Virus record (IMG/VR): IMGVR_UViG_3300014836_000320
Span: 22,313 to 86,312 of that record
Direction: 5' to 3' (one strand)
DNA from: a virus
Taxonomy: Duplodnaviria; Caudoviricetes
DNA: 64,000 nt
Shown: positions 13,701 to 60,781 of the stretch, piece after piece
How the letters are laid out: each line of letters opens with the position of its first letter
Numbering within the stretch: the stretch's first letter is position 1
Notes under the pieces: generated by a model
Databases searched by the model: none
What the model was told of the DNA's origin: nothing
What the model saw: only the letters and a program-made list of their open reading frames with translations
Program-made: the position numbers and the translations under genes

Positions 13701-13744
13701 AAAATGGCACAACAACTGCTCAAACCCTGGCCGAAGGCGGCTGA
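4751..13744 (+). CDS. Giant virion structural protein (probable baseplate wedge, gp7-like position)
   Basis: 2997-aa uninterrupted ORF after gp6-like gene; WD-rich ends; C-terminal YINEVKPYHSK. Confidence 0.6.
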   Translation: MQKDPKQFTGQVPENNTYPGQRKEGRVAPLAIDLLPLVFRTDTNKKIFGAALEDMFQPSSIENVNYAVGQPSGNAGISQEFLPRKNSRRQFETGLLVQDSTGTRVLTADDIALSQGFSDQHLNEKQVPVSVLDLPINPDKFVNWSNYYWLEEGMPTLYIVGTSLEDGGVISIVNDIIGKKNYTIPTQTNGRSVELKNGMRVVFQKTYPNRNNIDGNTSEQHVADGSNQLDFQHEMTQQYNKSKISIYVDGVLKTVNTDYAYTLGSIIWREGSIPAAGAVVDIDLPDYWVTEETIPPEQPKMDRRWQVEGVGSPSGIRLLPRSHQTTTTVYSSTIQSLWDQTTIPWDRIEWDGDIPGINKKHYVLQNTGASNRSAFSRVNVWIHRDTILTVCNYLNIKTEELIDDRKRALRPILEFDHRLELFNHGTKFRHWVDAVVDSRFSIIPVNPGSIGPFTLIGQPLTKLLVYTCFNAISSQSNAITARAVLDKLALALDNNDDEALNEFALGFEANDRTLVIETLLNIKTILRNVRQGKLSNVQRRVLWIIEGAWQNKIITFKTNDDNIVVGFEVESANDGDATVVLPGSGFESMMEYQWINGQVVPAQTRLTPVQKPLYNIYTRDQLSMTEWYQVNGVKPTKLNSTIIEFLEEDDPIDTESGYKLSFLASKFKSLDPNTPAANPMYDIQFKHTLQDKIYYLTSAVTDKEIPGPYSFRRLQSVITEQEQSVNEGLSFGYRRAWFRLRSWVINTHSLDKHIVGSVSRIAIDAHAWPTYEWNICYENNMPMVCHSDNLEYAVENLVVAGRGENLKLNTIGVNTIDIFNKNTQTNVMSGSTNGHGQITVFIPADIEAGFYELHFNGETKVNLLIIDPAADPRAPAIKVNGIDDTNYSFIVGRGIDNYATNLTIEFNSISGIAEIKHQGEFTSKSDHATAIPGIELNPLQIVELGTFTPSRLVKGMQRTIKANDIQENLIWTLSPQIPALDGALMADTSAIRSTWLKERVNPTLTEALASRSMTSWRWFRKFISLLDRYNKMYDLDNELPRLTLDRMLEEMNTGINYSVPDAVSGMAFNTNDMNMASYIANGQTSFAINTGSQEFYRGVYGPDHVYVYVNNILQHTGYAIVGQNVVFDVALATDDQVSIYHSGEEFIYAGIPASPAKLGLGGVFKPQLIRETWGNYDRVLIQCHDGSKIVAFQENWFSNGDPRDAVILELERRIYAGCVNRIGDPTRQRLSTYIYGQEASADRALAELQWFFANNIDYKERTDFINDNPWTWNYSGKSWRRLYLDEFGTVQPHSHPWEILGFDEKPVWWDTHYSWTDPVKRANLEMALMGGKISEPGQPVTYDFRVRRLSALGYPVGSLGQLLNPVEWGLPSPSVDQARQPWDIGSYGPAEDVWLRTGAGMWAACIDKASDLKTASEFVETGINPFIKPNINNSPKVLGDTSLAPSNFVQARPTIGIGAVLFETNRELNLLGESPLLEMSLIQPVLQFSVGGFTDSTVRFRMYHTRYQSGNYVPEEDFGLTLDSGVAEHQVRYSAVRVEKDGTGFRVYGFDPEYRYFEILEPIKENPSGGITGSYQNVFSTPTGDYVDYSQWKPNAVKVPYGSLINSKQDLFDFFAGMNELQSQRGLIFDQLNDRGTVNNWKQAAIDALSWIDENWSEEHFCVVEPATAAGGFKFHHAEGQLDQLNSDLLKRGKILFATGKIAQGSDLLTTRDYEENTDLIQSLNDEQVIFADLKIRKYDHVFFFNSKTRFNDLIIDHVTGQRLDYIGIVGRRTRGWDGRYQANGVLPTFTGLLPGFDALINDIVETRRPEKSQFDNFLGRLSKSNVVPVKTTVLSEVIPDAGVEFLFRQGLQSASGTNLAITAFFRNANIDIPGRSQDINVNEQWLFASGEFGRLGNRKIWEIELRKEDLINDRQVIRFLEGRTDVDLRSDNIIDIIGPRDPRWINRDSFDIRFEKVARADIEQQKLATIQKWLPSAGVANIDQTDLKARDLNQLSNGLALDNEKVQHLLSILSFSKFRNYEPEDLVWNDGALYKCVTKVQGGENTAWDPDQWTIYNVEATLLPPNIWVSDYNFKNPFSETTPPGDADVVGWNVLQLVGPTYVEECCPNAIQTGLNESKVTFGSPHRLTTGDVFLMVGANDGNYDKFHTVKDRVDDYNVLIEGRSTSNTPIFNLVVFKLTSMKFGSVESLQAQLNGVEGLKEGMKAFVEPDGSPDGEYIVYKYTNQGSVFSWQRDETYTTVAAAMVNTQTIESVTLLDSANENMLATVEVFDPYKGLTIDEVARFIDYRDGVDPAIYNTDDLGLPDPDAVNVWNNQHLGRIWWDTSRVRYFEYEQGDINYRARNWGQQFDGSEVIVYEWVRSEQLPTTDDEPMARQDTSSGVGVVRYNAIEEIETTGATRIYYYYWKKNVSELPANSSRRYSAIQIQTVLDNPDVAGVTWMSPIDSNALIISNIRQYLTTRNSVILRIEQKDTPEQQHETGILVSEGFTGDVVPEYLFRRLRVSLTGRDNFRKSYPLNTWRENTAYEVGAYVIKQDFPAEVSVYDSYSTLELAINGNYGGRDIPIIQVFDDGREEVKNVLRPKLTGDDLSPIDEKLHRVFYVANRTVNPANDIESLWRVVANVNGDRLVVDLYSENEETAKLQVLTDNPTASIVEVNGLYISSTDFRQDYVDEKIVVSATSAIIRGVLESNEYRAVINASRRVPDPRLHPLRRYGNNYTVIPQTWFKHIRESRRNFVRSANAYLLKINAVGKDHWNAHLLTYKPLFGPYIKDLTPYWRYVDYLANGYQYNTEQFVISDISEMSVDGIYGVADSRGVIDKSFVKTGNDIALVYQRNGTIQFNDAIWDGSLGDAWDMARWDQYAWDEDNSEVVRSLITALREDLFVEDDLGYFNLFFFDMVKESLRQIPNANWVSKTTYLNISQVSTNDLTPVGVYFDRRDVFVKNYINEVKPYHSKIVDINQSLSSNENITVNIEETLVLSIEENGTTTAQTLAEGG

Positions 13745-41003: not shown

Positions 41004-41882
41004 CTAGGTGGTAATAATCCTGATCTTATTGCGGTCTTGTTGACTGCGGCATTGATTCATGACACAGGCAAAATGGCTGGTGGGCGGTTGCCAGTCTGGG
41101 TCAAATACATTTCTAGGTTCGCTCCTGCCACCACACTGGCTGTAAGACACAAACCCTCGAGCATTGATCTGCATCCAGTCAACACCAGCATAACATGGCT
41201 TTCCTGTGTAGATAGGATCTGTTGAATTGACCGTTGCCAGGCTCACATAATTGGGATCTGCTTGACCTGGTTGCAAGGGCTCTGTGTTGTCCTGCCATAT
41301 ATCAGGACGGCCATAGATACGATTAACATCAACAAGATCGTATTCTCTGTGTGGTTCACCGTCTACACCACGCAACATCTGCTCTTGACATTGATAGCCA
41401 AGACTACGGAAACGTTGAACATGTTCTCTTGACTCTGTGATTGCACCAGGAGCCAATGGCACAGTGATGGCTATTTGTATATCTCTGCCTTGACTTTCTT
41501 CAAATATAAAATCAAACACCTCGTTGTTTTGCCAAGGATGGTAGGTCAGTTCCAAACGATCAATTAAACCCAGTATTGGATAGATTCCAAACCAAGTGTC
41601 ATCACCACTGGTTTCAAGACAGATGCTGGCAGGGCGTGACTTTATCTTTTTTAGTAAAGTGCTGAGATGAGGATAGTGTAAAGGTTCACCCCCTCCCAGC
41701 GTCCAGTGTATCTTGTTATGATGCTGATAGTGTGCCGCTTGTATTTTTTCAATGACTGTTAGATATTGCTCAACTGTTTTATCTAACGCACCATTTTTAA
41801 ATTCTGCTGGACAGTAACTACACTGAAATGTGCAGTAGCCATTGATAGTCCAAGCAACTTCTGAATGTGCCAACTCAATCAT
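41004..41882 (-). CDS. Radical SAM protein with C-terminal Cys-rich (SPASM/twitch-like) domain
   Basis: CTFQCSYC; GGEP; CYAG..CGG..C...C; TAAATA 5 nt upstream. Confidence 0.85.
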   Translation of the reverse strand: MIELAHSEVAWTINGYCTFQCSYCPAEFKNGALDKTVEQYLTVIEKIQAAHYQHHNKIHWTLGGGEPLHYPHLSTLLKKIKSRPASICLETSGDDTWFGIYPILGLIDRLELTYHPWQNNEVFDFIFEESQGRDIQIAITVPLAPGAITESREHVQRFRSLGYQCQEQMLRGVDGEPHREYDLVDVNRIYGRPDIWQDNTEPLQPGQADPNYVSLATVNSTDPIYTGKPCYAGVDWMQINARGFVSYSQCGGRSEPRNVFDPDWQPPTSHFACVMNQCRSQQDRNKIRIITT

Positions 41883-42604: not shown

Positions 42605-42925
42605 TTAAATCATGAGTCTTGGTGGTTTTGCTTCAAATCCTGTGCCAAAACTAACCACACAAGTTATTTCATTTTTCTCTAGGAACGTGGCCAATACAGT
42701 CCAGTTTCCTGTCTTGCCATTGACCCAAAAACTCATTAAAAACTTGGCACTGGTGCTGTTTTGTATGGCACCTGAGATAATGAACTGTTCTCCGCGCTTG
42801 ACCAAATCGTCACGAATAGTGTTGGTTTCACCACAATGCCATTTGGTTTCTATATCAAAACTTTTGGCATTGGCCGAACACAATGTCAAGAAGGATGCTA
42901 CTACTCCAATCAGCAGTTTATCCAT
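42605..42925 (-). CDS. Putative exported protein
   Basis: Signal-peptide-like N-terminus ending ANA-K. Confidence 0.55.
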   Translation of the reverse strand: MDKLLIGVVASFLTLCSANAKSFDIETKWHCGETNTIRDDLVKRGEQFIISGAIQNSTSAKFLMSFWVNGKTGNWTVLATFLEKNEITCVVSFGTGFEAKPPRLMI

Positions 42926-43901
42926 AGGTAGCGTTTAACCATTCAGTGTGATGTTGAGCCGAGTCTACAGCCTTTTGCATGTTATGCCGCCCACAGAACT
43001 TGATAAAGTGCGGACCCACTGATGGTTTCTTAGGTTGTTGAACAGCAGTGGCAATGGTTTCGTCTAAGATAGACTTGATGTTGCTGGGTTGTGCTCTAAG
43101 GTCAATGATTGAACGATTGCGTTCGTAGTCATCACGCACCAGGTGTTCAACGCCTTCATGGTCGGTCCAACGTTGCAACATTAGATTGTTCCACATGAAT
43201 CCTTTGTTGTTGCGATCAGCATAGGCTTCTTCAAGTCCAACCTTGTTCTTAGAACCTTTGGTTCTAACACCAGGATATGCTGAGAAGATGTTGTCACTGA
43301 CATCACCTCGCATGCATTTTTCAAACAACATCCAGTCAGGGTTAGGAGCAGGTTTGACTTCCTTGGTTTTCTTGTCTACGACTGCTCGCCCCTTGTCGTC
43401 ATAGTAACCTTCGTGTGTTGTCAGCACACCAGCAATGCCGTTGTAGAGTTGAACGTTGGTGGCAATCAGTTGCTCAAAATCGCTGTCGCTGGATACAATT
43501 GTATGATTGTCGTTGGGATGAAGATCAATCCAACGTGCGATCAAATCGTCGGCTTCAACCTGAGCATGTCGTAGCACAGTGATATTGGTCTTGGATTCCA
43601 AGTATTCTCTGAACTCGTCAAAACTCTTCCAAAACAATTCATCTTCAGCCTGCTCCTTGGGAGTTTGAGCCGCACGGGCTTCGCTTCGCTGAGCCTTGTA
43701 AGGACGGTAGACGTCCTTGCGCCAACTGCGACCTTCAAAGCAGAACACCACATGGCGACCTTGGCGCTCTCGCCATTGTTTCAGCACAGAGGCAAGAATA
43801 ATGTGATAACTCATGGCCACACGCTCTTCTGGATCGCCGGAGCGGATCACATGGCGGGCACGGAAGAAGAGATTGGCGGCGTCTACAATAAGATAACTCA
43901 T
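42918..43901 (-). CDS. 5'-3' exonuclease / T4 RNase H-like (FEN family)
   Basis: LIVDAAN, EADDL, SSDSDF, MRGDVSDNI. Confidence 0.9.
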   Translation of the reverse strand: MSYLIVDAANLFFRARHVIRSGDPEERVAMSYHIILASVLKQWRERQGRHVVFCFEGRSWRKDVYRPYKAQRSEARAAQTPKEQAEDELFWKSFDEFREYLESKTNITVLRHAQVEADDLIARWIDLHPNDNHTIVSSDSDFEQLIATNVQLYNGIAGVLTTHEGYYDDKGRAVVDKKTKEVKPAPNPDWMLFEKCMRGDVSDNIFSAYPGVRTKGSKNKVGLEEAYADRNNKGFMWNNLMLQRWTDHEGVEHLVRDDYERNRSIIDLRAQPSNIKSILDETIATAVQQPKKPSVGPHFIKFCGRHNMQKAVDSAQHHTEWLNATYG

Positions 43902-46229: not shown

Positions 46230-46423
46230 AGTCTATCATATAGGTAATATGATGTCATCCACACACAATTGATAACAATGGTAGGCAACAATGCCTGTGT
46301 CATGCTTTGTCCAGTGACCAACAACATCACATAGGTTGACAGTATCACCCATATCCTATAGATGATGGTTTTGACCAGTGTTCTGGTTCTAGTTTCTCTT
46401 ACTTGCCCCAACCGTTGCCCCAA
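46199..46423 (-). CDS. DUF2061-like small membrane protein
   Basis: ETRTRTLVKTIIYRI..YYLYDRLWSRIDWG. Confidence 0.6.
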   Translation of the reverse strand: MGQRLGQVRETRTRTLVKTIIYRIWVILSTYVMLLVTGQSMTQALLPTIVINCVWMTSYYLYDRLWSRIDWGRK

Positions 46424-47268
46424 ATATCCACATGCAGTCTGGGACTATAGTTGTAGCCACGCTTGAGTGCTTCATCGGCAACATTGATACGATTACCATC
46501 ATACACACTAACAACACCACCCACAGGCATCACATACACAGGACCTGTAAATCCAGCATAGCGATATTCAGACACCGCCTGATCTACTTCGTCAAAGTGT
46601 TCTAGGGATTCTACCACAAACTTCAAGTAGGTAAACCCCAACCAATTGTAAGATTTTACCACATCAGGCTTGACAGCATCTTCCCAGCGTTCGCCACTGG
46701 CCGACAGTTTGGGACTTACACTAAAAGTAACAGTATCCCAACTACGATCTGAACGCTCGTTCTTCCATTGATAGAAGTAGTCAATGAGTTCTTGATACAA
46801 AGGCTGAGTGCCGTTGGTTTCGAATGTGATGTTGCGTAGATCTTCCATGCCAGGTTGACTCAGCAAGTCGGCATATTCTCGTTGCCAGCCCAACAAAGGT
46901 TCGCCACCGGTGATCACAAGATGAACATCATTGCCATTGCGTTGTTGCCAATGTTGGTTTGGAGTCAATGCCAATAGACGTTGAACCACTTCTTGATTGT
47001 CATATGTGGGGCTTAGATGTTTGAATGCTGGATGCCAACTAGCATAACTGTCACAGCCTGTGCTCACCAGTGGCAATTCTTCAAAAGTTTTGTAGATACC
47101 AACATTTTGTGCAATAGGCTCTACTTCCTTGGTCTTCTCTCCTTTTCTCAGGCCAAAGCCTGCACATTGGAAATTGCAACCAAAAGTTCGTAAAAACACA
47201 CTAGGCACACCAACAAAGCGTCCTTCGCCTTGTGCAGAGTAAAACAGTTCGCTAATTTTAAGTTTCAT
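46399..47268 (-). CDS. queE: 7-carboxy-7-deazaguanine synthase (radical SAM)
   Basis: SELFYSAQGEG..FLRTFGCNFQC..CDS, ITGGEP, FETNGT, SPKL, PRLHVDIW. Confidence 0.9.
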   Translation of the reverse strand: MKLKISELFYSAQGEGRFVGVPSVFLRTFGCNFQCAGFGLRKGEKTKEVEPIAQNVGIYKTFEELPLVSTGCDSYASWHPAFKHLSPTYDNQEVVQRLLALTPNQHWQQRNGNDVHLVITGGEPLLGWQREYADLLSQPGMEDLRNITFETNGTQPLYQELIDYFYQWKNERSDRSWDTVTFSVSPKLSASGERWEDAVKPDVVKSYNWLGFTYLKFVVESLEHFDEVDQAVSEYRYAGFTGPVYVMPVGGVVSVYDGNRINVADEALKRGYNYSPRLHVDIWGNGWGK

Positions 47269-47539
47269 AGATTCTTGACCACCTTTTTAACTTTTCAAAC
47301 TTGCGTTGCTTGGCAAGTTCAATTTCGTTTCCATCAACTACATTGTATAATTTTAACAGATCTATCGCCGCTTGTAAATCCCCTACTTCTTCGGTTAGGC
47401 GTTCACGGTTAGATCCACCTTCCTTGAGGTGAGTCTCGTCAATGCCAAACCTACGGATCTTACAGACCATTTGGCTGACTTCGGCACATTCTTCCTGTAG
47501 CACCGTTAGGATTTCTTCTTCTCGTGTCATGTTATTCAT
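47258..47539 (-). CDS. MazG-like NTP pyrophosphohydrolase
   Basis: LQEECAEV..LTEEVGDL. Confidence 0.7.
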   Translation of the reverse strand: MNNMTREEEILTVLQEECAEVSQMVCKIRRFGIDETHLKEGGSNRERLTEEVGDLQAAIDLLKLYNVVDGNEIELAKQRKFEKLKRWSRIYET

Positions 47540-47766
47540 TCTTTAACCTCCCAAGCCCAATTGACAACCTGCCAGTCACTGAGACAATCTTCAAAACAAT
47601 AATTGGCATCAACATGCTCTTTGCCAAACTTTTCGCACATCTTACCATACCAATACGGATAATATCGTTGACGAATTTCATCCTCAGACAAGGTCTCAAC
47701 ATATCCACCTGTGTCGTTGGATCTTGGTGAATCTGGATCATATTCGTTGTAAGAAAAATATCTCAT
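47536..47766 (-). CDS. Hypothetical protein
   Basis: ATGA-coupled on both sides. Confidence 0.5.
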
Positions 47767-48782
47767 TTCAGAAACACATCGTTGATTTGTCGATTCACCC
47801 GGATAAAGGTTGTGCATTTAGGCAGTTGCTTGAGTGTTGGTGCACCAACATAGGTGCAGGTGCTACGCAGGCCACCAAGCAGATCCAGCACAGTCCCATT
47901 AACTGGCCCTCTATAAGGAATTGACACAGTTCGGCCTTCACTGCTACGATATTGTGCCACACCACCGTTGTGTTTGTTCATGGCAGTATCACTGCTCATT
48001 CCGTAAAATGTAACACGGCCATCTTTTACTTCACCGCCACCTTCATCATGTCCAGCCAACATTCCGCCGAGCATGACAAAATCTGCGCCTGCTCCAAATG
48101 CTTTAGCCACATCACCTGGGCAAGTGCAACCGCCATCAGCAATGATATGGGCACCGAGGCCATGTGCCGCATCAGCGCATTCAATGATCGCAGAAAGTTG
48201 CGGGTAGCCAACCCCAGTTTGTATCCGAGTCGTGCATACCGATCCCGGTCCGATTCCAACTTTGACAATGTCGGCTCCTCGTAAAATAAGTTCTTGGGTC
48301 ATATCAGCCGTGACCACGTTGCCGGCAATGATAGTGTGAGAACTAAACGCTTCTCTAACACTATGAATAAAATCACCAAAGTGCTCGCTGTAACCATTGG
48401 CCACGTCAACACAGATAAAATGAATTTCAGGATAGGCTGTTAGAATTTGTCTAAGTCTACTAAAGTCTTCTCTACTGGTTCCAGTGCTGACAGCAAAATA
48501 CTTGCCACCAATGGTAGTCACAATATCATGTAAATCATCGGGCTCGTAGTTTTTAATTAGACAAGTAAACAGCCCGTGTTCGTGCAATGACTCGGCCATA
48601 CCAATAGTGCCAACTCCGTCCATGTTACTGGCCATGACAGGAACACCAGTCCATTCAGTTTGACTGTATTTGAAACGATAGCGACGTTTGAGATCAACTT
48701 CTCGTCGACTTGACAATGTGCTACGCTTGGGGCGAATCAGCACATCGCGAAAGTCTAGTTTGATATCTTCTTCAATACGCAA
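47763..48782 (-). CDS. guaC: GMP reductase
   Basis: [40 protein letters not shown]. Confidence 0.95.
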
Positions 48783-48783
48783 T

Positions 48784-49644
48784 TTAAATTTCCAATACTA
48801 ATTCAGGATTCCACTCAGACACTTCACCCCACGATTCATAACCGCGAGGATTGCACACTACTCTAGTAGTTCCTACTAGATAATCAAAGGGTTGATGCAT
48901 ATGACCGTGTGTCCAAAGCACAATTTCTGGATGATCTAAAATAAACTCACTGAGGTCACTGGCATAGCCACCGTTCATATGGAAGTCGTTTTTATAGCGA
49001 GCATCAATGCTTTGATATGTAGGCGCATGATGACCCACAACAACAACCTTTTTGGTGCTACCTTGTTTGCGAAGATCATCCAACACATTCTCAAAGTATT
49101 CTTTGGTTCTCATGTGTCGTTCCATGACATGGGCAGGACGCAGTCGTGTATAACCTGCACGATCATTACGAATAACTCTAAAGTCATTCATCTTCTCACT
49201 GATAGAATGTTGAGTTAATGGATCACCTTTGTTCATATCTGTCCAGAGTGTTCCGCCAACAAACACAACATCATTGATTTCAACAGAGTTTCTTTCAAGG
49301 AAGTGAATATTGCTGAACTTGGCACATTCACTGCGAATATGCTCTACAGTTTCAAAGAACTTGCCATGATAGAATTCGTGATTGCCTGCAACATAGATTA
49401 CATGCGGAAATTGAAAACTCACACGCCGGAGAAAGTCTCTAAATCTTAGAGCAGTGGCTTGGCGCCGACCAAGATCGGCCAGGTTAGCATTGCTATACAT
49501 CTTGTAATCCATTTCAGGATGTTCGTGTAAGTCGCTACCGATGAGAATGTCGCCAGAAAGAATCAAGACATTTGTGTCGCCAACATTGCGAATGTTAATG
49601 TCTGAGAATTCTAAGTGCAGATCACTAACCAGTTGTATCTTCAT
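48784..49644 (-). CDS. Calcineurin-like metallophosphoesterase
   Basis: SDLH, GD, GNHE, HHAP, HGHMH. Confidence 0.9.
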
Positions 49645-49930
49645 CGTGATTTCCTGATTCAAGTTTTGCCAAAGGATTGAGTCCATTTACAGGAATACCA
49701 TCTTCGTCTACGATTCCAAATCCATCAAATACAAATCCACAGCCCTTGCAAAAATCTTCAAACATCTGTAGAATTTCACCTAAGTCTGCTTCCTTGTGAT
49801 CTACCATGATGGTTCTATGTCCATCATTGTAGTAAAAGAACCATTGCGGCTCAATGGGATTGACTTCTAGTTCCTTGCTGGATTTTTCCAGTTGTTTGAC
49901 AATACTGTTCCATGGATCAATTTTTTGCAT
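49625..49930 (-). CDS. Hypothetical protein
   Basis: 101-aa ORF in operon. Confidence 0.5.
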   Translation of the reverse strand: MQKIDPWNSIVKQLEKSSKELEVNPIEPQWFFYYNDGHRTIMVDHKEADLGEILQMFEDFCKGCGFVFDGFGIVDEDGIPVNGLNPLAKLESGNHDEDTTG

Positions 49931-50693
49931 CTCGCAGTTTCCGGTTAATGTTCAACATCTGTTCTAACATTGTAGCATCAATTCCATTATTTTGCAACTC
50001 TGTTTTGTAAGTTGTAGAGTCTTTTGGAAAACAATGTCCACCAAAACCACGTGATCCATCTGGGCCTGGTGTGTCCCAATGAGTTGACCCTAGCCTAGGT
50101 TCACTACGCAACACGCCAGCCACATTGGCATAGTTGACATCATATGATTCACACAATTCTCGCAGTTGGTTGGCAAAGACCACTTTCATAGAAAGGAAAG
50201 TATTGGTGGCCAACTTCATTGCCATGGCTTCTTTGGCTGATACTGTAAACACAGTGGTTCTAGGCATTAGATCAAAAGTTTTTGCAAATGTTGCGGCATG
50301 ATAGCCTCCCAGCACAATAAGTTTGGGGTTAACAGCATCTTCTTCCCAATGATTGGCTCGAATAAATTCGGGCCAAACAACAAGCCTATCTCCTAACACT
50401 TTTTCTAGTTTATCAATGGATTCCAGACTCAGTGTGCTACGAACCAAATAGTTTCCTGCAAACTTGTGCAGTTCCGCATTGCGAATGGCTTTGAATACAA
50501 TTTCGTCGTCATTGAGACCGTTGCTACCCAACGGACTGGGAACACAAATTACACACCACTGGGCTTGATCAAATCGTTCACTGTGAATGTTCAACGGAGG
50601 ATCGTCAAACTCAACATCACCTACTTCTGTGTGCCAAGATAAAAACTTTTCTGTGGCCTTGCCAACAAACCCTCGACCTTTGATGATTACCAT
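49917..50693 (-). CDS. UDP-glucose/GDP-mannose dehydrogenase family protein (lacks C-terminal domain)
   Basis: GRGFVG, CVPSP, PEF, KLATNTF, GFGGHCFPKD. Confidence 0.85.
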   Translation of the reverse strand: MVIIKGRGFVGKATEKFLSWHTEVGDVEFDDPPLNIHSERFDQAQWCVICVPSPLGSNGLNDDEIVFKAIRNAELHKFAGNYLVRSTLSLESIDKLEKVLGDRLVVWPEFIRANHWEEDAVNPKLIVLGGYHAATFAKTFDLMPRTTVFTVSAKEAMAMKLATNTFLSMKVVFANQLRELCESYDVNYANVAGVLRSEPRLGSTHWDTPGPDGSRGFGGHCFPKDSTTYKTELQNNGIDATMLEQMLNINRKLRDAKN

Positions 50694-51454
50694 GCTTGTC
50701 CTTTTAAAATATATTCGGGATACTTTCTAATACTGTAATCTAACAGCGGTTCCAGTCGAGCAACATTAACCCAACCCTTGATTACAATTAAAATTTTTCG
50801 ATATGCTGGATCAAAGTCAGCGGCATGTAAAAACGATTCGTTGTTCCAAGCAAAGGTATTGGTATCATTGGGAAGTTTAACGTATAAACGTCGATGTTCT
50901 TCTACATCGGTATGAGGTTCAAACTCACTGGCACTGGCTAACCAAAACGTTTCCTTAGGATTTTTATCGTCAAGCATGATTCTAATTTCAGTAGGAAAGC
51001 GCAACTTACCGTCAATGCTGTCAGGCATGTTACCGTCATAGTGTAACGGTATAGTCCTGTGAGCACTCCAGAGTCTAATAGAACGAATTTTTACATACGG
51101 AAGTTGATTCAATAATTTTTCAATCAGTTTGCTATTGGCATCAATCATTGGTTGACAGATCTTAGATCCCCAGGCACCTTCGCCGTAGAGTTCAGGTAAT
51201 TCGTAAATGCTCATTCCATCCCATTGCGTATGATCAATGCTGGGTTTAGTAGTTCCTACAGAACCTCGATCAATGTGATTGCGCCATACACGTTCTTTTT
51301 CATCGTTCCAGATATGCCAAAAGTCTGACCAAGAGTCGGGCTCAAACTTTGGCAACGCCAACGGCAAAGCGGCAATGCCCGCATATTTTTCTGACAATCG
51401 CGGGCATTCAGCAAGATCAATTAGTTGTTCTAATTTTTTATAATCAACTTTCAT
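50687..51454 (-). CDS. 2OG-Fe(II) dioxygenase-like protein
   Basis: [19 protein letters not shown]. Confidence 0.5.
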
Positions 51455-51768
51455 TCTTCTAGCAAATGCCTTTTATCTTTAACAGTCTTGAATTCTTCTG
51501 CAGATTCAAGTTCAGGCTTGCGCCTAGTAATAACAGGCCAAGACTTGGCCAAGCGCAGGTTGATTTCGGCCCAGGACTTATCTTCAAGTGTGTTGTCATC
51601 AACAATGGCCTCAACAGGACATTCAGGAATACAAACGCCACAGTCAATACACTCGTTGGGATCAATTACAAGAAAATTAGGACCTTCATGAAAGCAGTCT
51701 ACAGGACATACTTCCACGCAATCTGTATACTTGCATTTGATACAGGCTTCGGTAACATAATGACTCAT
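51451..51768 (-). CDS. fdxA: 7Fe ([3Fe-4S]+[4Fe-4S]) ferredoxin
   Basis: [30 protein letters not shown]; start MSHYV at a TAATG overlap. Confidence 0.9.
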
Positions 51769-52187
51769 TAGTGTGAACCCCAATTGTTTTTTGCAGTATC
51801 TTTGTCTACATCTCGACGCTTGCCGGATAAGCCCAGCATGGCACGATATTCTTGCCATGCGGCTTGCACCATCGGATCCTGTTCGGTATCGCCCGAAGGA
51901 AATAGATCTGCCCATACACAGTTTTCCATGATCTTGCCACGGTATTGACCAAAATCTCTGGGCTGATGAATCTTGCCTGATTCCCATAGTTGAACAGCAA
52001 CAGCAAGGCAACGCTCTCGATCCAAGCCATAAAGGTAATCATCTCTATAAAGGTATTCGTCTACCAGCGCATCAAGCCTACTACGGTCAGTCATGGTGCC
52101 CGACACAATGACCACAACATCATTGATATCTACGTCACCCTTGACAATATCACGAATACAACGACCATAACTAAATCCCACTTTCAT
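51768..52187 (-). CDS. Hypothetical protein
   Basis: 139 aa; AGGAG ribosome site. Confidence 0.6.
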
Positions 52188-52690
52188 AGTGTGCTCCTAT
52201 TCCACCAACTTTCCCAAGGAAAATCAATCCAAACATCATTTTCAAGTTTATTCACTGACATACCAGCAAAGTCGCTGGTTTCATTGCTGGCTTCGTTGTC
52301 AACAAGACTTGCCCAGCGTATTTCGTCGTGCCAGAAATTTTCTGTAAACATGTGATCTACACCAGCAACAGAACTAGCCCAATCTTCTTTAAGCCATGCT
52401 TGTGTGGCACCCGAGTCGTTGATATCGTCGACCAACAAAATGTTTTTACCATCTAACACCATTTCCGGTGCCCATGTTAGGCTTTCACATTCTCCACCGT
52501 CACGCAAACTTACCTTGACACTGGCATGCGGAACGTTCAAGTAATGACTCAACATTACAGAAGGAACTAGACCACCTCGATCTACACCAATCACAAGATC
52601 AGGACGCCAGCCTGATGTTTGTATTTGTCTAGCAATCTCTTGTGCTAAATGTTGGATGTCTTGCCAACTCAATGATAGTTTATCGCTCAT
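52184..52690 (-). CDS. Type I phosphoribosyltransferase (Gpt-like)
   Basis: GVDRGGL, LLVDDINDSGAT, WIDFPWE. Confidence 0.85.
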   Translation of the reverse strand: MSDKLSLSWQDIQHLAQEIARQIQTSGWRPDLVIGVDRGGLVPSVMLSHYLNVPHASVKVSLRDGGECESLTWAPEMVLDGKNILLVDDINDSGATQAWLKEDWASSVAGVDHMFTENFWHDEIRWASLVDNEASNETSDFAGMSVNKLENDVWIDFPWESWWNRSTL

Positions 52691-53163
52691 AGGTCTTCGT
52701 CAAGTTTACGATCAGGTCCGCCTAACAGTTTTTCCAATGCTTTATACTCATCGTAGAGTTCTTTAAGCATGGGATACTTTTCGTGCAATTCAAAATTAGG
52801 TGCAAGAATCAGCAAACGCTTTTTAATAGTTTCAACAACGTCTGCTAGTTCTTCAAGGTCAATTCTCTTACCATTGGCGGTATTGATTTCATTGACACCA
52901 CTGATAGAATTAGTTGGCATAGACGATGTAAATGAAAAATTGCCGCCGCTACTACCGCCAATGGTAATGCCACTTAAATCAATGGTGTCAGTGCCAACAG
53001 AATCAATGGTGTAAACTGGGCCTGCGGCACCATAGTTTGTGGTAGTGATATTGGCAATGTCAATTTCCTGTGCAATAAATCCCGAAGACATGTTAGCGCC
53101 ATCACTGGACCATGTAAACTCTAGTGGCTTAACGCTGTCAAGTTTCTTTTGATCATCGTCCAT
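52687..53163 (-). CDS. Hypothetical protein
   Basis: TAATG-coupled to folE. Confidence 0.5.
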   Translation of the reverse strand: MDDDQKKLDSVKPLEFTWSSDGANMSSGFIAQEIDIANITTTNYGAAGPVYTIDSVGTDTIDLSGITIGGSSGGNFSFTSSMPTNSISGVNEINTANGKRIDLEELADVVETIKKRLLILAPNFELHEKYPMLKELYDEYKALEKLLGGPDRKLDEDL

Positions 53164-53846
53164 TATGCCCTCTTGCAAGCATTGACAATGTTCATGAACT
53201 CTAAACGCACACTAGGGTCTGACTTGAATACACCGCCAATCTTGCTGGTCACTGTAGATGAACCAACATCCTCGACACCACGGCTTTTGACACAGTAATG
53301 CTGAGCATCAATGACCACAGCAATGTCGTCAGTTTCTAGAATGAACTGTAGTGCGTGGTAGACCTGCTCGGTAAGGCGTTCTTGAATCTGTGGACGCTTG
53401 GCAAAGTATTCAACTACGCGGTTGATCTTGCTAAGACCTAGAACCTTTTGCTTGGGGATATAGGCCACAGTGGCCACACCATCAATCACAACAAAGTGAT
53501 GTTCACAGTTACTCTGCACATTGACGTTGCGTTCAATGACCATTTCATCGTATTTCATCTTGTTGTCAACTGTGGTGCATTTGGGAAATGCATCGTAGTC
53601 AAGCCCCCAGAAGATTTCGTTCACATACATCTTGGCCACACGCTTGGGGGTTTCAATGAGACTGTCATCGCTGAGATCTAGACCAAGAGCCTGCATAATC
53701 TTGGTAAAGTGACCTTCAATGAGATCAATCTTTTCTTTGCGATCTAAGGTGTTGGGTTCTGTTGGAGTTTCTACTCCGCACTTGACCAGGTGCTCATGAA
53801 CCAGTTTACCCAATTCGGGGTCAGTTTTAGTTTTGTTATATGACAT
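53163..53846 (-). CDS. folE: GTP cyclohydrolase I
   Basis: [37 protein letters not shown]. Confidence 0.95.
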
Positions 53847-54464: not shown

Positions 54465-54989
54465 TTATTCTCCGGGAGGATTGTATGTTTGCTCGTATTC
54501 GTAACGAGCAACTCTATAGAACTGGTCTTGTGTGCCAGGCTCCTGGACTAGGTAGTCACCAGGCTTCAGTGTCATTGGTGAACCCCAAGGTGCTGTAAAA
54601 CTAACAGGTTGTGATCCTGTGTATTTTGCTACCATTCTAACTGCATTGATATCGGGCTTGCGACGGCCATTGCCTGCTTCAATGGGATAGTTCTTGGCCA
54701 ACTTGGCTTCTGGTCCAATGTTGTATTTTTCTTTGCTAGGGCCGCTGACAATGACATCGCCAACATTGACTGCCTTGACTGTTTCATGGCCGTCTTCAGT
54801 TACAGTTTCTAATTGAAACTGTTCTCCGCTTTTGCCAAAACTCAATGCTGGCATTGAGTCAATGTTGGTCTGATTGATAGGCTCGTTAAACGGACTATAG
54901 GTCAAGTCCTTTTTGTGTGTAGGCAGAAACTTTAATTGACTGGCAATTTGTTGTATATCTGCGTTTTCTTTTAGATCGGTGATTTTCAT
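54465..54989 (-). CDS. Hypothetical protein (PGDY motif)
   Basis: APWG..LKPGDYLV. Confidence 0.55.
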   Translation of the reverse strand: MKITDLKENADIQQIASQLKFLPTHKKDLTYSPFNEPINQTNIDSMPALSFGKSGEQFQLETVTEDGHETVKAVNVGDVIVSGPSKEKYNIGPEAKLAKNYPIEAGNGRRKPDINAVRMVAKYTGSQPVSFTAPWGSPMTLKPGDYLVQEPGTQDQFYRVARYEYEQTYNPPGE

Positions 54990-55411
54990 TTTGTTTTCTC
55001 CACTTCAGATTCATAGACTCTTCGTCTTAGACTGCTAGAACTAAAACTATGGTCTCGACCATTAAAGTAAAGTTCAATTCCTCGCTTATGGCAAATTTCT
55101 CTGCCAGTAAACTCTTTGCCTTCGTATTCCACGCCCAGTATTCTAACATCAATAGGCAAGGTAAGCAATAGATCTTCTAGATCTTTTTCTGTATTGTAAA
55201 CCCAAACTTCGTCAACATACCTAGAGCCTTTGAGTTGCATTTGTCTTTCAACAATACTCTGCACTGGTCTGTTCTTGTTGGGTCGGTCAAGTGTTGGATC
55301 GTTTTGCAAGCCAACAATCAAATAGTCACATTGTGTTTTGGCTTCTTGTAGCATGGCCACATGACCTGCATGTAGAAGGTCAAATGTTGAACAGGTAAAT
55401 CCCACTTTCAT
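54986..55411 (-). CDS. Cytidylyltransferase (TagD-like)
   Basis: FDLLHAGH, R.H.FSSSSLR. Confidence 0.85.
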   Translation of the reverse strand: MKVGFTCSTFDLLHAGHVAMLQEAKTQCDYLIVGLQNDPTLDRPNKNRPVQSIVERQMQLKGSRYVDEVWVYNTEKDLEDLLLTLPIDVRILGVEYEGKEFTGREICHKRGIELYFNGRDHSFSSSSLRRRVYESEVEKTK

Positions 55412-55414
55412 AGT

Positions 55415-56413
55415 TTATGCGTAGTGTTGATAAGTTTTGCTATTATACCAAGCCCAACTGGTTCTAACAATATTTTCTAGGCGACTGTTTTCTGCTTGCC
55501 AGCCTGCCCAGTTTTTGAACTTCTGAGGACTTGCTACTAAAACTGCAGGATCTCCTGCACGTCTAGGGCCAGTATGAATCAATAGTGTGCGACCAGTGAT
55601 GCGTTCAACTTCAGCAATGACTTCTCGAATACTGTAGCCGCGACCTGAACCTAGATTAAATTCTTGAAACGGTTCTACAAAGTCTGATGCAATGAGTGTG
55701 GCATCAATATGTGCTCGGGCAATGTCTTCTACATGTAGGTAATCCCTGACACAAGTGCCATCAGCGGTGCTGTAATCTTCGCCATTGAGCGTAAACACAC
55801 CGCCCGAGATCAAACTCTCCATCAATCGTGCAATTACATGAGTAGCCTGTTTGACTTGCCCATGACGAACCTGAGCGTCGGCACCACATGCGTTGAAATA
55901 TCTCAATGCCACAGCCTTAAAACCATAGGCACGAGCACAGTCTCGGATAACCTGCTCGGCCATAAGTTTACTGTGACCATAGGGACTGATAGGCAGTTTG
56001 TTGCTTTCTTCTGTGAGCATTTTACTATCAATGGGATTACCATAGGTAGCCGCTGAACTAGAAAATACAAAAGTCTTTGTCCAGCCCTTGTCTGCCAAAT
56101 TCTTCATAAGTCTGGCAGTATTACCTACGTTATTCATGTAGTAGGTTGCTGGATCCTGCATGCTAGGACCAACAAGGCTAGTGCCAGCAATATGAATCAC
56201 TGCTTTGGCATCTTTGCTTTGAACGGCTGTGGAAAACAAACCCGAAGTAAAATCTCCAGGAATGGTCACATCAATGTGTTCACGAATCCAAGGACTTAGG
56301 TTAGTATTACGATCACAACCAATGATCTTGTAGCCCTGGTCTTTGAAACGAAGAACTGTTTGGCCACCAATGTAACCATTGCATCCAGTTATGCCAACCC
56401 ATTTATCTGTCAT
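55415..56413 (-). CDS. galE: UDP-glucose 4-epimerase
   Basis: GCNGYIG, SSSAATYG, YGHSK, LRYFNACG, VRDYLHV. Confidence 0.9.
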   Translation of the reverse strand: MTDKWVGITGCNGYIGGQTVLRFKDQGYKIIGCDRNTNLSPWIREHIDVTIPGDFTSGLFSTAVQSKDAKAVIHIAGTSLVGPSMQDPATYYMNNVGNTARLMKNLADKGWTKTFVFSSSAATYGNPIDSKMLTEESNKLPISPYGHSKLMAEQVIRDCARAYGFKAVALRYFNACGADAQVRHGQVKQATHVIARLMESLISGGVFTLNGEDYSTADGTCVRDYLHVEDIARAHIDATLIASDFVEPFQEFNLGSGRGYSIREVIAEVERITGRTLLIHTGPRRAGDPAVLVASPQKFKNWAGWQAENSRLENIVRTSWAWYNSKTYQHYA

Positions 56414-57636
56414 GATGTGTAGAGTTTATATTTTGTTTCACTGACATGATCGCGATAACGATTGCCTGCGCGATTCCATTGCTGAGCCTTACACTCCATA
56501 CCACCTTCTGCTACGGTTCCAGCAGTTTCCATGATATCTAGAATGCGATCAATGGTGCCATTGTTCCAATCACTGATTTTACCTTGTGCTGGATGCGGTG
56601 CTCGCAACAGTTCAATTAACTTGTCAAGCGCATCTTGTTGACTCCAAGGCACATACATCCTTGTGTGGTCGTTGGCAAAGGTTTCAGGAAAACTTCTATA
56701 AGCAGGATACAGCACATTGCAACCAAGAGTATCGGCTTCGCTTACAGTATTTGAAACCCAATCCTGTAACGCACAATTAAAGAGAACTTTGCTGTCGTTG
56801 ACAATATTGTAGTAATCGTTCTTGCTAAGATCCTTGTAGATCTTGAGCATGCCACGACTTTCAAGTGCTTGAGCACGTTCCAGATACTTGGGGTTGTTGC
56901 TACGCAATGGCCCGCCGGACAAGATGGCAAATTCCACATGTGGTTTAAATTTGTCAGCATGCCAAGTCTCAATGAGATCCATAAAGAAGTCAGGTTGCTT
57001 CTCTTGATCAAACCTTGCGGCAAACACCACACGGTCGGCTCGTTGATCCCAAGGTTTGACTTGATTGTTGACACGACCAAGAACTTCTTCTTTGCCAAAT
57101 GCTAGGCCACTAATATTGTAAATTGGAGCAGTCCAATTAGCAATACGCATATGAGCAACCATCTCTTCATTAGTGGCAAGAACACCTGTAGCAAAACAAT
57201 TGACCATTTGTTCATAAGTTGACATCCATCCAGCCATGCCCCAAACATGAACAAAGTCATCGGGGTCAATGGCCTGTGCTAAACAACGCACAAAGACTCT
57301 GGGTCTTTGATTGGCTGGAATTTGATCCATGATGTATGGAAGCGATTCAATGCCAGGCTGAAACATGTCTTCAAAATAGACAACATCCTCGCCGGTGACT
57401 TCACCGCTTCGCATCATTTGAACCAAGTTCATCATTTGACTCATACCAAAGTAACTGCGACCATGTGCATCCAGCACTTGGCCTACACTGATTGCTTTGG
57501 TATTGTCTAAGGTCAGACCAGGAACAATAACATAGTCAATGCCGCGGCGTTTGAATACCGCTTCATTCCAGTCCTGTAGTTGAAGCGTGTATCTACCCTG
57601 ATAGGGTTCTAATCCCATGTAGTAGAGTTTACGCAT
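56410..57636 (-). CDS. GT-B fold glycosyltransferase
   Basis: FAARFDQEKQ, DWVSNTVSEA..GC. Confidence 0.75.
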   Translation of the reverse strand: MRKLYYMGLEPYQGRYTLQLQDWNEAVFKRRGIDYVIVPGLTLDNTKAISVGQVLDAHGRSYFGMSQMMNLVQMMRSGEVTGEDVVYFEDMFQPGIESLPYIMDQIPANQRPRVFVRCLAQAIDPDDFVHVWGMAGWMSTYEQMVNCFATGVLATNEEMVAHMRIANWTAPIYNISGLAFGKEEVLGRVNNQVKPWDQRADRVVFAARFDQEKQPDFFMDLIETWHADKFKPHVEFAILSGGPLRSNNPKYLERAQALESRGMLKIYKDLSKNDYYNIVNDSKVLFNCALQDWVSNTVSEADTLGCNVLYPAYRSFPETFANDHTRMYVPWSQQDALDKLIELLRAPHPAQGKISDWNNGTIDRILDIMETAGTVAEGGMECKAQQWNRAGNRYRDHVSETKYKLYTS

Positions 57637-58057
57637 TGGTGTCCTCACGATCCAAGCGGTTGGGCATACAACACATACCGTCAGCAGTATGACGAGTGGT
57701 TGGTGCCCAGGCACTCTTGTAAAGACCCACGTGGATCTTTAGCACCTTGGGTGTGCGCTCAGGTGTGCCCTGAACATGGAAAGTGTAGGTAAAACTACGC
57801 GAACCTGTTTCTTCGTTGGCACGAAGTTCCGGCGCTTCAATCCTAAATTCGTGAATATACTGGTCACGAACTAGATCTTGTAGATACTGCTCATAGAGCC
57901 TTGTTGGCAACATAGCCAACTCCTCTGTTAGAACTCCATCATAGAGTTCTGAGATCTTGAGCAGATCAAACTTGATATGAGCCAAGTTCAATGAACTACG
58001 TCGGGGTTGATTGTAATTGTTACGATTGTCAAAACGAACGTTAGGCTTGTTAATCAT
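57629..58057 (-). CDS. Hypothetical protein
   Basis: 8-bp overlaps at both ends. Confidence 0.55.
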   Translation of the reverse strand: MINKPNVRFDNRNNYNQPRRSSLNLAHIKFDLLKISELYDGVLTEELAMLPTRLYEQYLQDLVRDQYIHEFRIEAPELRANEETGSRSFTYTFHVQGTPERTPKVLKIHVGLYKSAWAPTTRHTADGMCCMPNRLDREDTNA

Positions 58058-58421
58058 ACTGCCGTAGGCAACCATTTTCGCCATCCTCTGAGACTTCGAT
58101 CCAAACAGATCGGTTAGTGAATTGTGCTGAAATTTTAGCATAGAGTTCTTCTGCTATCATTTCGCACGACTTGTGATTCAGTTCAAGTGTGCCAGTGGAA
58201 TATAGTTTTTCCAACCAGCGTTTGAACTGAATAAATTCCACATCACGGTCATCGTGAAAAACTTGTAGATAGACCTTGAAGTGGAAAATATGTCGATGTG
58301 GGCTTGCAAGAAAACTCACATCAAATTCGTCACCAGAGGCTAACTTAGGATCAGTAGCCGCCGCTGGGTAACAGTGAATTCCTTCCTTGCGGAACGTTAC
58401 CCAAATCATGTCTTTGGACAT
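58050..58421 (-). CDS. queD: 6-carboxytetrahydropterin synthase-like (QueD/PTPS T-fold)
   Basis: HRHIFHF, SCEMIA, EVSEDGENG. Confidence 0.65.
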   Translation of the reverse strand: MSKDMIWVTFRKEGIHCYPAAATDPKLASGDEFDVSFLASPHRHIFHFKVYLQVFHDDRDVEFIQFKRWLEKLYSTGTLELNHKSCEMIAEELYAKISAQFTNRSVWIEVSEDGENGCLRQYD

Positions 58422-59224: not shown

Positions 59225-60781
59225 TTATACCTTCAATGAGTTTTCGAGTTCTACAAGACGTTCATCGTCAGGATTGTCAAAGTCGCCGGCTTCGGCTCCG
59301 TCAACAATTACTTCATCGTCACCAGAATCAAAGATATCGTGGACTGCTTCTGCACCCGACTTGCGAGTCTTACGACCCGAGAACTCGGCAAGCAGTAGCG
59401 AACACTGGTCCAGTAACTTCATTGGTTCTTGGCTACGAAATACTTGGTGAACTAATTCCATAACGTATAATACATTACGTGGCACCCATAAGTCAAGTTG
59501 TCCTTCCTGGCTACGTTGCTTGGTTCTTCTCCAATCTGTGGGATTGGGTCTAGTAAGGCGCCAAGCAACATCAGCCAATGCGTTGGCTCGTTGAACCGAC
59601 TCAATGTGTTGGTAAACATTGTGACCCATAATCAGGCTGTATGAGAAAGTGTCCCAAGAAGTCTTGGCAACCTTGCCATTCTTGTTGGCCTGACCCGGCT
59701 TGTAGTAGCAAACATCTCCCATGGTGATGCGCTCACCAATAGGGCTGTTCCAAGGCCAAGGAATAGTAGAGCCACTGAGATCGCGGTTGTCTACACACTT
59801 CTCCATCACATAAGTGAACCTATCGTTGCTGTGAACGTGTTGGGTATAACTCAATCCATACGCAGTGGCAACAAATGGACTGGCGCAGTCATATGTGACC
59901 ATCATGTTGGGATTCACCGTTTCACGCAAGGCTCGTTGAACTGCTGTCAAGAATACTGCAAATTCTAACCGGCTGGTGCCCAAGACGTGGATCACATCAC
60001 GGCCTGGAGCCAACATGCCTTCGTCGCGCATTTGAATCAAGCGGCGTAACAAGAGATGTGCATCTTGCATGTTGTTACCACCCATGGCCCAACCTTCAAA
60101 AGGAAAGTGCTTGACATTGTCATACCAAATGTCTGCTTCCTGATTGTTGGAACCCTGTAGCACATTCAAAAACTTGGTCTGATGCTTGCGATTGGCCAGG
60201 AACCAAGCATTGTTATAAAGTGTGCCATCTAAACATTCTTGAAAACTCTTAAGACCTGTGCGTTCGTTTAGTGGAGGTCTTGCCGCCCAAGTAGGAATAT
60301 CAAGAACCATGCTGTAATCAGCAGTATGCTCAAGCCAGTTGAGAATCTGGCCGCGAGTCTTGTCAGCCGATCCTTTGTATCCTGCGTCACCGGGTTTCTC
60401 CATGAAGTTTTCCCAGTCAAACTTGATAACACCCTTGGCAATCTGGAATCCACCACTGTCGCCGAGAATAAAAGTATTCTTGCGATCGCGCTTTTGAATC
60501 ATTGATTCATCGGTGTCAGTTTTTGTCAAGTCTAACTGTGCATGACCAGCCGAGTAAAGTGCATAAGGATAGTGATAGTAAGCGGCTTCCTTATTAAGGA
60601 AGTTCATGCCTTCTACGCCAGTCTCAAATTCCTTGGGCACACGATTAGCAGGAATAGAACCTGGAGAGTTTTGTTCCTTGCTGATAATGGTATTATAGAA
60701 GGTTGAGATGCTAGGAAGAAAGATAGCATAGTCTTGGTTCCTAGCCCAAAGATCTACCCTTGTTTTTTTACTGGCTGTCAT
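59225..60781 (-). CDS. tRNA-guanine transglycosylase-like protein (probable DpdA-type DNA base-exchange enzyme)
   Basis: ILGDSGGFQ, MVLDIP, VLQG, IHVLG, TYDCASP; next to the replication genes. Confidence 0.8.
   Translation of the reverse strand: MTASKKTRVDLWARNQDYAIFLPSISTFYNTIISKEQNSPGSIPANRVPKEFETGVEGMNFLNKEAAYYHYPYALYSAGHAQLDLTKTDTDESMIQKRDRKNTFILGDSGGFQIAKGVIKFDWENFMEKPGDAGYKGSADKTRGQILNWLEHTADYSMVLDIPTWAARPPLNERTGLKSFQECLDGTLYNNAWFLANRKHQTKFLNVLQGSNNQEADIWYDNVKHFPFEGWAMGGNNMQDAHLLLRRLIQMRDEGMLAPGRDVIHVLGTSRLEFAVFLTAVQRALRETVNPNMMVTYDCASPFVATAYGLSYTQHVHSNDRFTYVMEKCVDNRDLSGSTIPWPWNSPIGERITMGDVCYYKPGQANKNGKVAKTSWDTFSYSLIMGHNVYQHIESVQRANALADVAWRLTRPNPTDWRRTKQRSQEGQLDLWVPRNVLYVMELVHQVFRSQEPMKLLDQCSLLLAEFSGRKTRKSGAEAVHDIFDSGDDEVIVDGAEAGDFDNPDDERLVELENSLKV

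Follow-up and report, generated by a model that had tools for sequence, protein, structure and literature searches.

The 64-kb window analyzed here (64,000 nucleotides) is the final 64 kb of an 86.3-kb IMG/VR virus record, IMGVR_UViG_3300014836_000320, and carries a 7-deazaguanine DNA-modification island at ∼46.4 to 60.8 kb. On balance, and with moderate confidence, the island is explained as a giant-phage system for replacing guanine with 7-deazaguanine in DNA (dDG type), in which a phosphoribosyltransferase (PRTase) acts as an optional helper and a GMP reductase (GuaC), a metallophosphoesterase, and probably a MazG-like protein are add-ons. An earlier note on this DNA had placed queE, a MazG-like gene, guaC, a metallophosphoesterase gene, a Gpt-like PRTase gene, and folE within 7.5 kb on one strand and had likened them to the toyocamycin nucleoside pathway. 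All six genes were confirmed by the list of open reading frames (ORFs) and by profile matches, tightly packed on the minus strand, and the 7.5 kb that they occupy is the downstream half of the island. Neighboring genes overlap or abut (47258–47268 and 47536–47539), the gap between the GuaC and phosphoesterase genes is 1 nt, and every gene between ∼40 and 64 kb of the window lies on the minus strand; the tight packing is consistent with a single transcription unit. Completeness of the contig was estimated by CheckV as 26%, implying a parent genome of ∼330 to 380 kb, and the genome is that of an uncultured jumbo phage with a layout akin to that of Pseudomonas phage PA5oct. Coordinates below are those of the window, and the genes lie on its minus strand, unless otherwise indicated.

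Assignment of the locus as a dDG-type DNA-modification island of the phiST/PA5oct type follows from the presence, in the same gene run and some 5 to 7 kb past the six genes, of a DpdL homolog and an enzyme with the fold of tRNA-guanine transglycosylase (TGT). The DpdL homolog (58050–58421, 123 aa), a T-fold protein proposed to decarboxylate 7-carboxy-7-deazaguanine (CDG), was recognized by homology and by the signature motif of DpdL, LxxxHRHxF (PMC10516641), which reads L..PHRHIF here and stands in place of the QueD motif CxxxHGH. The protein is 34% identical to phiST CGPG_00067 (E 9e-14) and 52 to 61% identical to the homologs of PA5oct, ACP17, and Phosso. The second gene (59225–60781) encodes a DpdA-like transglycosylase of 518 aa, for which no Pfam (including Pfam TGT) or PHROG match was obtained and whose family profile matched nothing among PDB sequences. 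Since sequence searches had failed to show it, the TGT identity of this protein is drawn from the predicted fold, an AlphaFold model (predicted local distance difference test score, pLDDT, 79) that Foldseek matched to TGT at probability 1.00 (E 4e-8). The family has the invariant motifs DSGGFQ, LQG, GWAMGG, HFLGTS, and FDCASP, among which DSGGFQ and FDC are catalytic motifs, and the protein is 38% identical to PA5oct gp168 over 552 aa. Alignment with phiST DpdA3 by hhalign reached a probability of 8%, which does not place the enzyme in the DpdA3 subfamily. With DpdL and a DpdA-like enzyme in the gene run, base exchange on DNA is the expected route, and the genes do not make up a self-standing nucleoside pathway of the toyocamycin kind.

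Among the core 7-deazaguanine genes, FolE (GTP cyclohydrolase I, the first step to CDG; 53163–53846) scored 330 bits on NF006824, against a cut-off of 202, and matched PF01227 (E 3e-62). The QueE-like radical S-adenosylmethionine (SAM) protein (CDG synthase; 46399–47268) matched phrog_2076 (E 5e-53) and is 46% identical to QueE of Synechococcus phage BUCT-ZZ01 and 36% identical to that of Vibrio phage nt-1, with QGEG and GCNFQC...GCD as N-terminal motifs. No match to it was returned by the Pfam scan, and its partial matches to the NCBIfam QueE models scored ∼40 bits against cut-offs of 200 to 300; as it falls below these equivalog cut-offs, the protein is assigned to a divergent phage subfamily. 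A second radical-SAM protein (41004–41882, 292 aa; PF04055 E 8e-8, weak phrog_2076 match) is encoded ∼4.5 kb past QueE, beyond the RNase H gene. QueC was detected neither in the contig nor, above cut-off, in five relatives including one complete genome.

By homology to the phiST system, FolE, QueD (presumably encoded elsewhere in the genome, as it is in complete relatives), and the QueE-like protein would convert GTP to CDG, DpdL would decarboxylate CDG to 7-deazaguanine, and the DpdA-like TGT-fold enzyme would swap 7-deazaguanine for guanine in phage DNA. The most likely job of the PRTase would be guanine recycling, in which guanine freed by base exchange is captured and combined with phosphoribosyl pyrophosphate (PRPP) to give GMP, which would return to the GTP pool feeding FolE. 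As one guanine is expelled for each deazaguanine inserted, and one GTP is spent on each, conversion of guanine and PRPP to GMP would close the loop. GuaC, which turns GMP into IMP, would be a general phage nucleotide-pool gene that landed in a variable island, as would the metallophosphoesterase gene and probably that of the MazG-like protein.

The PRTase is truly linked to the deazaguanine pathway, its co-occurrence with que genes being far beyond chance. At least 557 IMG/VR contigs encode a relative; among the best 80 of these loci, the genes found within 10 kb included QueE (69/80), FolE (66/80), a GT-B-like glycosyltransferase (54/80), DpdL (47/80), and the TGT-like enzyme (37/80, a count to be read with many of the loci being truncated). 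MazG-like genes were found in 17 of the 80 and the metallophosphoesterase in 10, these last from the closest clade only. The combination of QueE, FolE, and the PRTase is found again in hundreds of related contigs and is not a chance grouping. The PRTase gene is usually situated inside or beside the que operon, and the loci L080 and L081 contain a contiguous QueE-PRT-QueD-FolE cassette. Among cultured phages, tblastn matches to the PRTase were confined to the phiST group, immuto, BUCT-ZZ01, and two Brevundimonas phages, to which a Pfam search added PA5oct, whose PRTase gp163 lies between DpdL and QueE. The gp163 gene (L331:10175–10609; NC_071039 226936–227370) is annotated as hypothetical (PF00156 E 6e-10), with QueE as gp162, DpdL as gp166, and the TGT-fold homolog as gp168. 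FolE and QueD were confirmed in the PRTase-bearing phages phiST, immuto, BUCT-ZZ01, and MaInes, and all five cultured PRTase lineages, mutually unrelated and with differing gene orders, have deazaguanine genes (QueE-PRT-x-QueD-FolE in BUCT-ZZ01, QueD-x-QueE-x-x-PRT-FolE in immuto, and dNMP kinase-FolE-PRT in MaInes). A gene for a HIT-domain nucleotide hydrolase/transferase occurs in the module of 29 of the 80 PRTase loci (e.g., L054:8462–8809) and not in the window.

This distribution bears on a competing account, that the PRTase, GuaC, phosphoesterase, and MazG-like genes have no functional link to the que genes and are generic salvage genes in a hypervariable early-gene island that also holds them. 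The stretch between the GT-B gene and the RNase H gene indeed varies strongly among relatives, GuaC and the phosphoesterase behave as unlinked genes, and the PRTase has housekeeping bacterial relatives. However, the cultured phages with this PRTase family are exclusively CDG-making genomes from five unrelated lineages with differing gene orders, which makes an absence of any link improbable. Linkage does not amount to necessity. No Pfam PRTase domain was found in 8 of the 11 cultured DpdL-bearing lineages (ACP17, Phosso, RHph_I1_18, Bakedbeans, X1, BCSR5, Ahp1, and D479), and the PRTase is therefore regarded as an optional helper rather than a core step, as DpdL cannot generally depend on a phage PRTase. 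On the same count, a strict coupling of PRTase and DpdL in the order of TubE followed by a decarboxylase was considered and rejected. A DpdA/TGT-like gene was identified in the PRTase-bearing jumbo lineage, L081, phiST, immuto, and PA5oct, and none was identified in BUCT-ZZ01 or MaInes. A search of the literature found no paper tying a phosphoribosyltransferase to phage deazaguanine genes, and the main text of the 2023 report on phiST and immuto makes no mention of one (PMC10516641).

The PRTase itself (52184–52690; PF00156 E 1.5e-12) is a Gpt-like 6-oxopurine phosphoribosyltransferase. An AlphaFold model (pLDDT 92) matched in Foldseek, as top structures, the P. horikoshii purine PRTase, S. 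solfataricus HGXPRT, and E. coli XGPRT, and the family profile matched PDB entry 1VDM from P. horikoshii (E 5e-21) followed by XGPRT and HGXPRT entries. The protein has the type I fold, a PRPP loop of the pattern D-D-x-x-D-T/S-G-x-T (here VDDINDSGAT, which includes the catalytic Asp), and, at the C terminus, a Gpt-like W..FPWE motif containing the purine-stacking Trp, features common to bacterial and archaeal 6-oxopurine PRTases (XGPRT/Gpt, 1VDM, and HGXPRT). In contrast to these enzymes, it has an insertion after the PRPP motif and a genomic context of 7-deazaguanine synthesis, and it scores 55.5 bits on the Gpt equivalog NF006613, below the cut-off of 138. Its closest cellular relatives, 31 to 40% identical, are chromosomal proteins of Sphingomonadaceae and Flavobacteriaceae without que neighbors. 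The Asp of the DDINDxGxT loop contacts N7 of the base in 6-oxopurine PRTases (HGPRT/XGPRT), and this residue, along with all other signature residues of the phage PRTases, is common to 77 chromosomal bacterial homologs without que neighbors. An altered pocket, with Asn for the archaeal Lys and Arg for the loop Tyr, was considered as a sign of altered specificity and rejected because the same residues occur in those que-less homologs (76/77 for Asn and 40/77 for Arg). Ordinary guanine chemistry is thus favored for the PRTase, given its optional status, its housekeeping relatives with the same signature residues, and the occurrence of a TGT-like enzyme in most PRTase lineages.

GuaC (47763–48782) is a canonical NADPH GMP reductase, scoring 549 bits on NF003470 (cut-off 397) and 530 on TIGR01305 (cut-off 492) and 62% identical to Salmonella GuaC, and its role here would most simply be the conversion of GMP to IMP. 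The gene is sporadic among relatives: it is missing from 12 large ones, including two that are 100% complete, and from the four complete cultured PRTase-bearing phages checked, and it is present in XacN1, RAS14, and Cr30, where no QueE-like gene or FolE was found. Co-occurrence of guaC and the PRTase with queE and folE, which the earlier note had put forward as a check, holds for the PRTase but not for GuaC. Among the 80 nearest IMG/VR GuaC genes (69–100% identity), about half lie inside the deazaguanine island, at no fewer than three differing positions, and about half in an auxiliary-gene island of an unrelated kind; a 278-kb contig has GuaC >200 kb away from QueE and FolE. The host-like genes of the other island (L175:5745–19990 and ∼38 similar loci) encode Hsp70 and Hsp20, a cell-wall hydrolase, an Rv2179c-like exoribonuclease, CsgG and a curlin-repeat protein, haem oxygenase, and a ferredoxin-dependent bilin reductase. 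The calcineurin-type metallophosphoesterase (48784–49686; PF00149, phrog_1649 E 1e-53) is, like GuaC, a variable add-on. Its family comprises 193 phage records, counted irrespective of que genes and including jumbo phages of E. coli, Salmonella, and Caulobacter, and Cr30 carries GuaC, the same phosphoesterase, and a glutaredoxin together. Grouping of GuaC and phosphoesterase with que genes is specific to a small clade, and both are wandering nucleotide-pool genes of an ordinary kind, not steps in an antibiotic-like pathway. The small MazG-like NTP pyrophosphohydrolase (47258–47539, 93 aa; phrog_4856 E 5e-23) has EExxE and ExxD motifs, and MazG-like genes lie within the modules of three lineages, namely those of the window, phiST, and immuto.

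These properties bear on a full tubercidin/toyocamycin parallel, in which GuaC would convert 7-deaza-GMP to 7-deaza-IMP, host PurA and PurB would yield 7-deaza-AMP, the phosphoesterase or the MazG-like protein would trim it, and the product would be 7-deaza-adenine in DNA or a toxic nucleoside. The gene content does correspond to TubC/B/E/D plus a phosphohydrolase, tubercidin synthesis draws PurA and PurB from the host (PMC6112128), and roughly half of the nearest IMG/VR loci of GuaC are within the module. Yet GuaC scores as a canonical equivalog close to the enterobacterial enzyme, is missing from the 12 large relatives and the four complete cultured PRTase-bearing phages and occurs in que-less phages and in the unrelated auxiliary-gene island, and the phosphoesterase is a generic large-phage gene. 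No PurA was found (PF00709 matched nothing in the contig or in the four relatives scanned, of which one is complete; PurB, PF00206, was not searched for), so that the genome search for purA and queC suggested in the earlier note yielded neither. Moreover, a DpdA-like insertion enzyme marks a nucleic-acid rather than a secondary-metabolite pathway by a genome-mining rule of 2026 (bioRxiv 10.64898/2026.04.15.718813), and the TGT-fold protein at 59225–60781 is such an enzyme. The full parallel is accordingly considered very improbable. The toyocamycin comparison and the proposed use of GuaC as a deazapurine step are not supported by these results, and for GuaC the plainer alternative offered in the earlier note, nucleotide-pool rebalancing, is the better reading.

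Several points weigh against replacement by base exchange with a guanine-recycling PRTase. The 86-kb contig, estimated as 26% complete, gave no PTPS match for QueD; both 100%-complete relatives have QueD, at a distance of 60 to 75 kb from the module, and it was found in 9 of 12 large relatives. The TGT-fold enzyme has only weak sequence similarity to DpdA3. Embedding of GuaC in the module could reflect function rather than a hotspot. A purely post-replicative route has no obvious need of recurrent MazG-like dNTP pyrophosphohydrolases. A purine-type PRTase can be CDG-specific, as TubE of the tubercidin pathway shows (PMC6112128). Lastly, the DNA of phiST and immuto is reported to be completely modified (100% replacement), and DpdL with DpdA did not reconstitute dDG in E. 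coli (PMC10516641), which together leave room for a missing nucleotide-level step.

Such a step would be supplied by a tubercidin-like, pre-replicative route, in which the PRTase would be a CDG-PRTase that, as TubE does, makes the CDG ribonucleotide, DpdL would then yield 7-deaza-GMP, and kinases and ribonucleotide reductase would provide 7-deaza-dGTP for the polymerase, with the MazG-like protein removing dGTP and the TGT-like enzyme mopping up residual G. TubE uses CDG and PRPP, with decarboxylation following ribosylation (PMC6112128), and tubercidin clusters, which have no QueC, bring a PRTase and a decarboxylase together with a GMP reductase and a phosphohydrolase (bioRxiv 10.64898/2026.04.15.718813). 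In addition to the recurrence of MazG-like genes, the complete replacement in phiST and immuto, and the failed reconstitution, this route would account for the position of the PRTase within the que operon of several lineages and, in MaInes, for its place beside the genes for dNMP kinase and ribonucleotide reductase. It sits poorly with the 8 of 11 DpdL-bearing cultured lineages that have no PRTase domain, with the DpdA/TGT-like enzyme of the jumbo lineage (37/80 loci), L081, phiST, immuto, and PA5oct (again excepting BUCT-ZZ01 and MaInes), and with a PRTase that retains all signature residues of its housekeeping relatives, including the Asp that contacts N7 in 6-oxopurine PRTases. The pre-replicative route is therefore judged unlikely, although it is given appreciable weight. 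A mixed outcome, in which the nucleotide route operates and GuaC deaminates part of the 7-deaza-GMP so that, by way of host PurA and PurB, the DNA would contain both 7-deaza-adenine and 7-deazaguanine, is held to be highly improbable. Of the deazapurine role that the earlier note had proposed for the PRTase, the association with que genes across unrelated phages and the TubE precedent speak in its favor, whereas the free-standing nucleoside pathway does not stand with DpdL and a TGT-like enzyme nearby.

Guanine replacement by base exchange, the preferred explanation, leaves several other genes of the island to be placed. Interspersed among the six genes are a UDP-glucose-dehydrogenase-like ORF, an FdxA-type ferredoxin, and two unknown ORFs. 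The first of these (49917–50693) is truncated to the middle domain (PF00984 E 4e-20; positions 71–296 of 413 in TIGR03026) and is possibly a remnant, or else a domain put to some new purpose. The 4Fe-4S ferredoxin ORF (51451–52011; PF11953 and Fer4; phrog_8732 E 2e-40, residues 82–185), whose domain occupies the last ∼105 residues, was found only in near-identical contigs; a role as electron donor to the radical SAM QueE is possible. A 163-aa protein encoded between the PRTase and FolE (52687–53178) has no family match and a partial 35% match to PA5oct gp165; the idea that it is a hidden QueD was rejected, there being no family or cluster evidence for it. The GT-B-like glycosyltransferase (56410–57714), conserved with the module, has a weak PF00534 match and is 71% identical to the BUCT-ZZ01 neighbor of DpdL. 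In many relatives, the module is accompanied by the genes found here at 54986–57714, namely this glycosyltransferase, an NAD-dependent sugar epimerase, and a cytidylyltransferase, and their products may add a sugar to deazaguanine. The variable island is bounded by a conserved core gene for a 5′-3′ exonuclease/RNase H (42918–43901; PF02739 E 2e-20, phrog_107), syntenic in nearly all related loci. Megablast of the 7.4-kb region against cultured phages returned no match. The whole module (QueE, FolE, DpdL, TGT-like, and RNase H) is also present in three contigs of metagenome-assembled genomes in GTDB (L251, L252, and L259, from Chitinophagales, Crocinitomicaceae, and Rickettsiales bins), which are probably of phage origin and were placed in bacterial bins. 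On the plus strand, in the structural half of the window, a single ORF of 2997 aa spans 4751–13744.

Phage DNA containing 7-deazaguanine is a known anti-restriction strategy. The one part of this system for which the literature offers no explanation is the conserved helper PRTase, accompanied by the recurrent MazG-like gene. The GuaC and phosphoesterase part amounts to ordinary auxiliary metabolism. A PRTase tied to the dDG pathway offers a concrete candidate for the component that the failed reconstitution in E. coli lacked or that would boost it. PA5oct is culturable and offers a natural test bed, and phiST, immuto, and BUCT-ZZ01 have been cultured as well.

In comparison with known systems, the gene set resembles tubercidin synthesis in Streptomyces tubercidicus (TubC/A/B, the PRTase TubE, the UbiD decarboxylase TubF, the GMP reductase TubD, and the Nudix protein TubG; PMC6112128) in being CDG-based and without QueC and in pairing a purine-type PRTase and a decarboxylase with a GMP reductase and a phosphohydrolase. 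In contrast to tubercidin, the decarboxylase candidate is the T-fold DpdL rather than a UbiD protein (none appeared in Pfam scans of the island ORFs, and no PF01977 search aimed at UbiD was made), MazG-type and calcineurin-type phosphohydrolases are encoded instead of a Nudix protein, GuaC is canonical and dispensable in relatives rather than a dedicated homolog that travels with the pathway, and a transglycosylase of the DNA/tRNA type is present, so that the product is expected in DNA and not as a free nucleoside. Toyocamycin/sangivamycin synthesis (ToyD/B/C/M, ToyH, ToyE, ToyG/F, and ToyI) likewise shares FolE, QueE, a PRTase, a GMP reductase homolog, and a phosphatase with the island but needs QueC, for preQ0, and dedicated PurA/PurB homologs, of which QueC and PurA were not found here (PurB was not searched for). 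Tubercidin is the closer parallel because QueC is absent, and its borrowing of PurA and PurB from the host keeps that branch compatible with the absence of PurA. PA5oct, a Pseudomonas jumbo phage of the Arenbergviridae, is the closest cultured match in gene order, sharing the succession of DNA polymerase, clamp, TGT-like enzyme (38%), DpdL (52%), PRTase gp163 (24%), QueE-like protein (34%), and RNase H (48%). Its gp162–gp168 stretch contains no GuaC, phosphoesterase, or FolE, its genes there are annotated as hypothetical, and a literature search found no report of PA5oct DNA modification. The dDG system of phiST and immuto has in common with the island FolE, a QueE-like protein, DpdL with LxxxHRHxF, a TGT-fold insertion enzyme, a MazG-like gene in the module, and the absence of QueC, and both phages also encode a homologous PRTase. 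In the published model for that system, DpdL acts on the free base and DpdA3 follows (PMC10516641). Unlike in phiST, the insertion enzyme here has 518 aa and is barely alignable to the 259-aa DpdA3, QueD was not found in the fragment, and GuaC, phosphoesterase, ferredoxin, and sugar-nucleotide genes are additional. The locus is a variation on a kind of system already known from giant phages.

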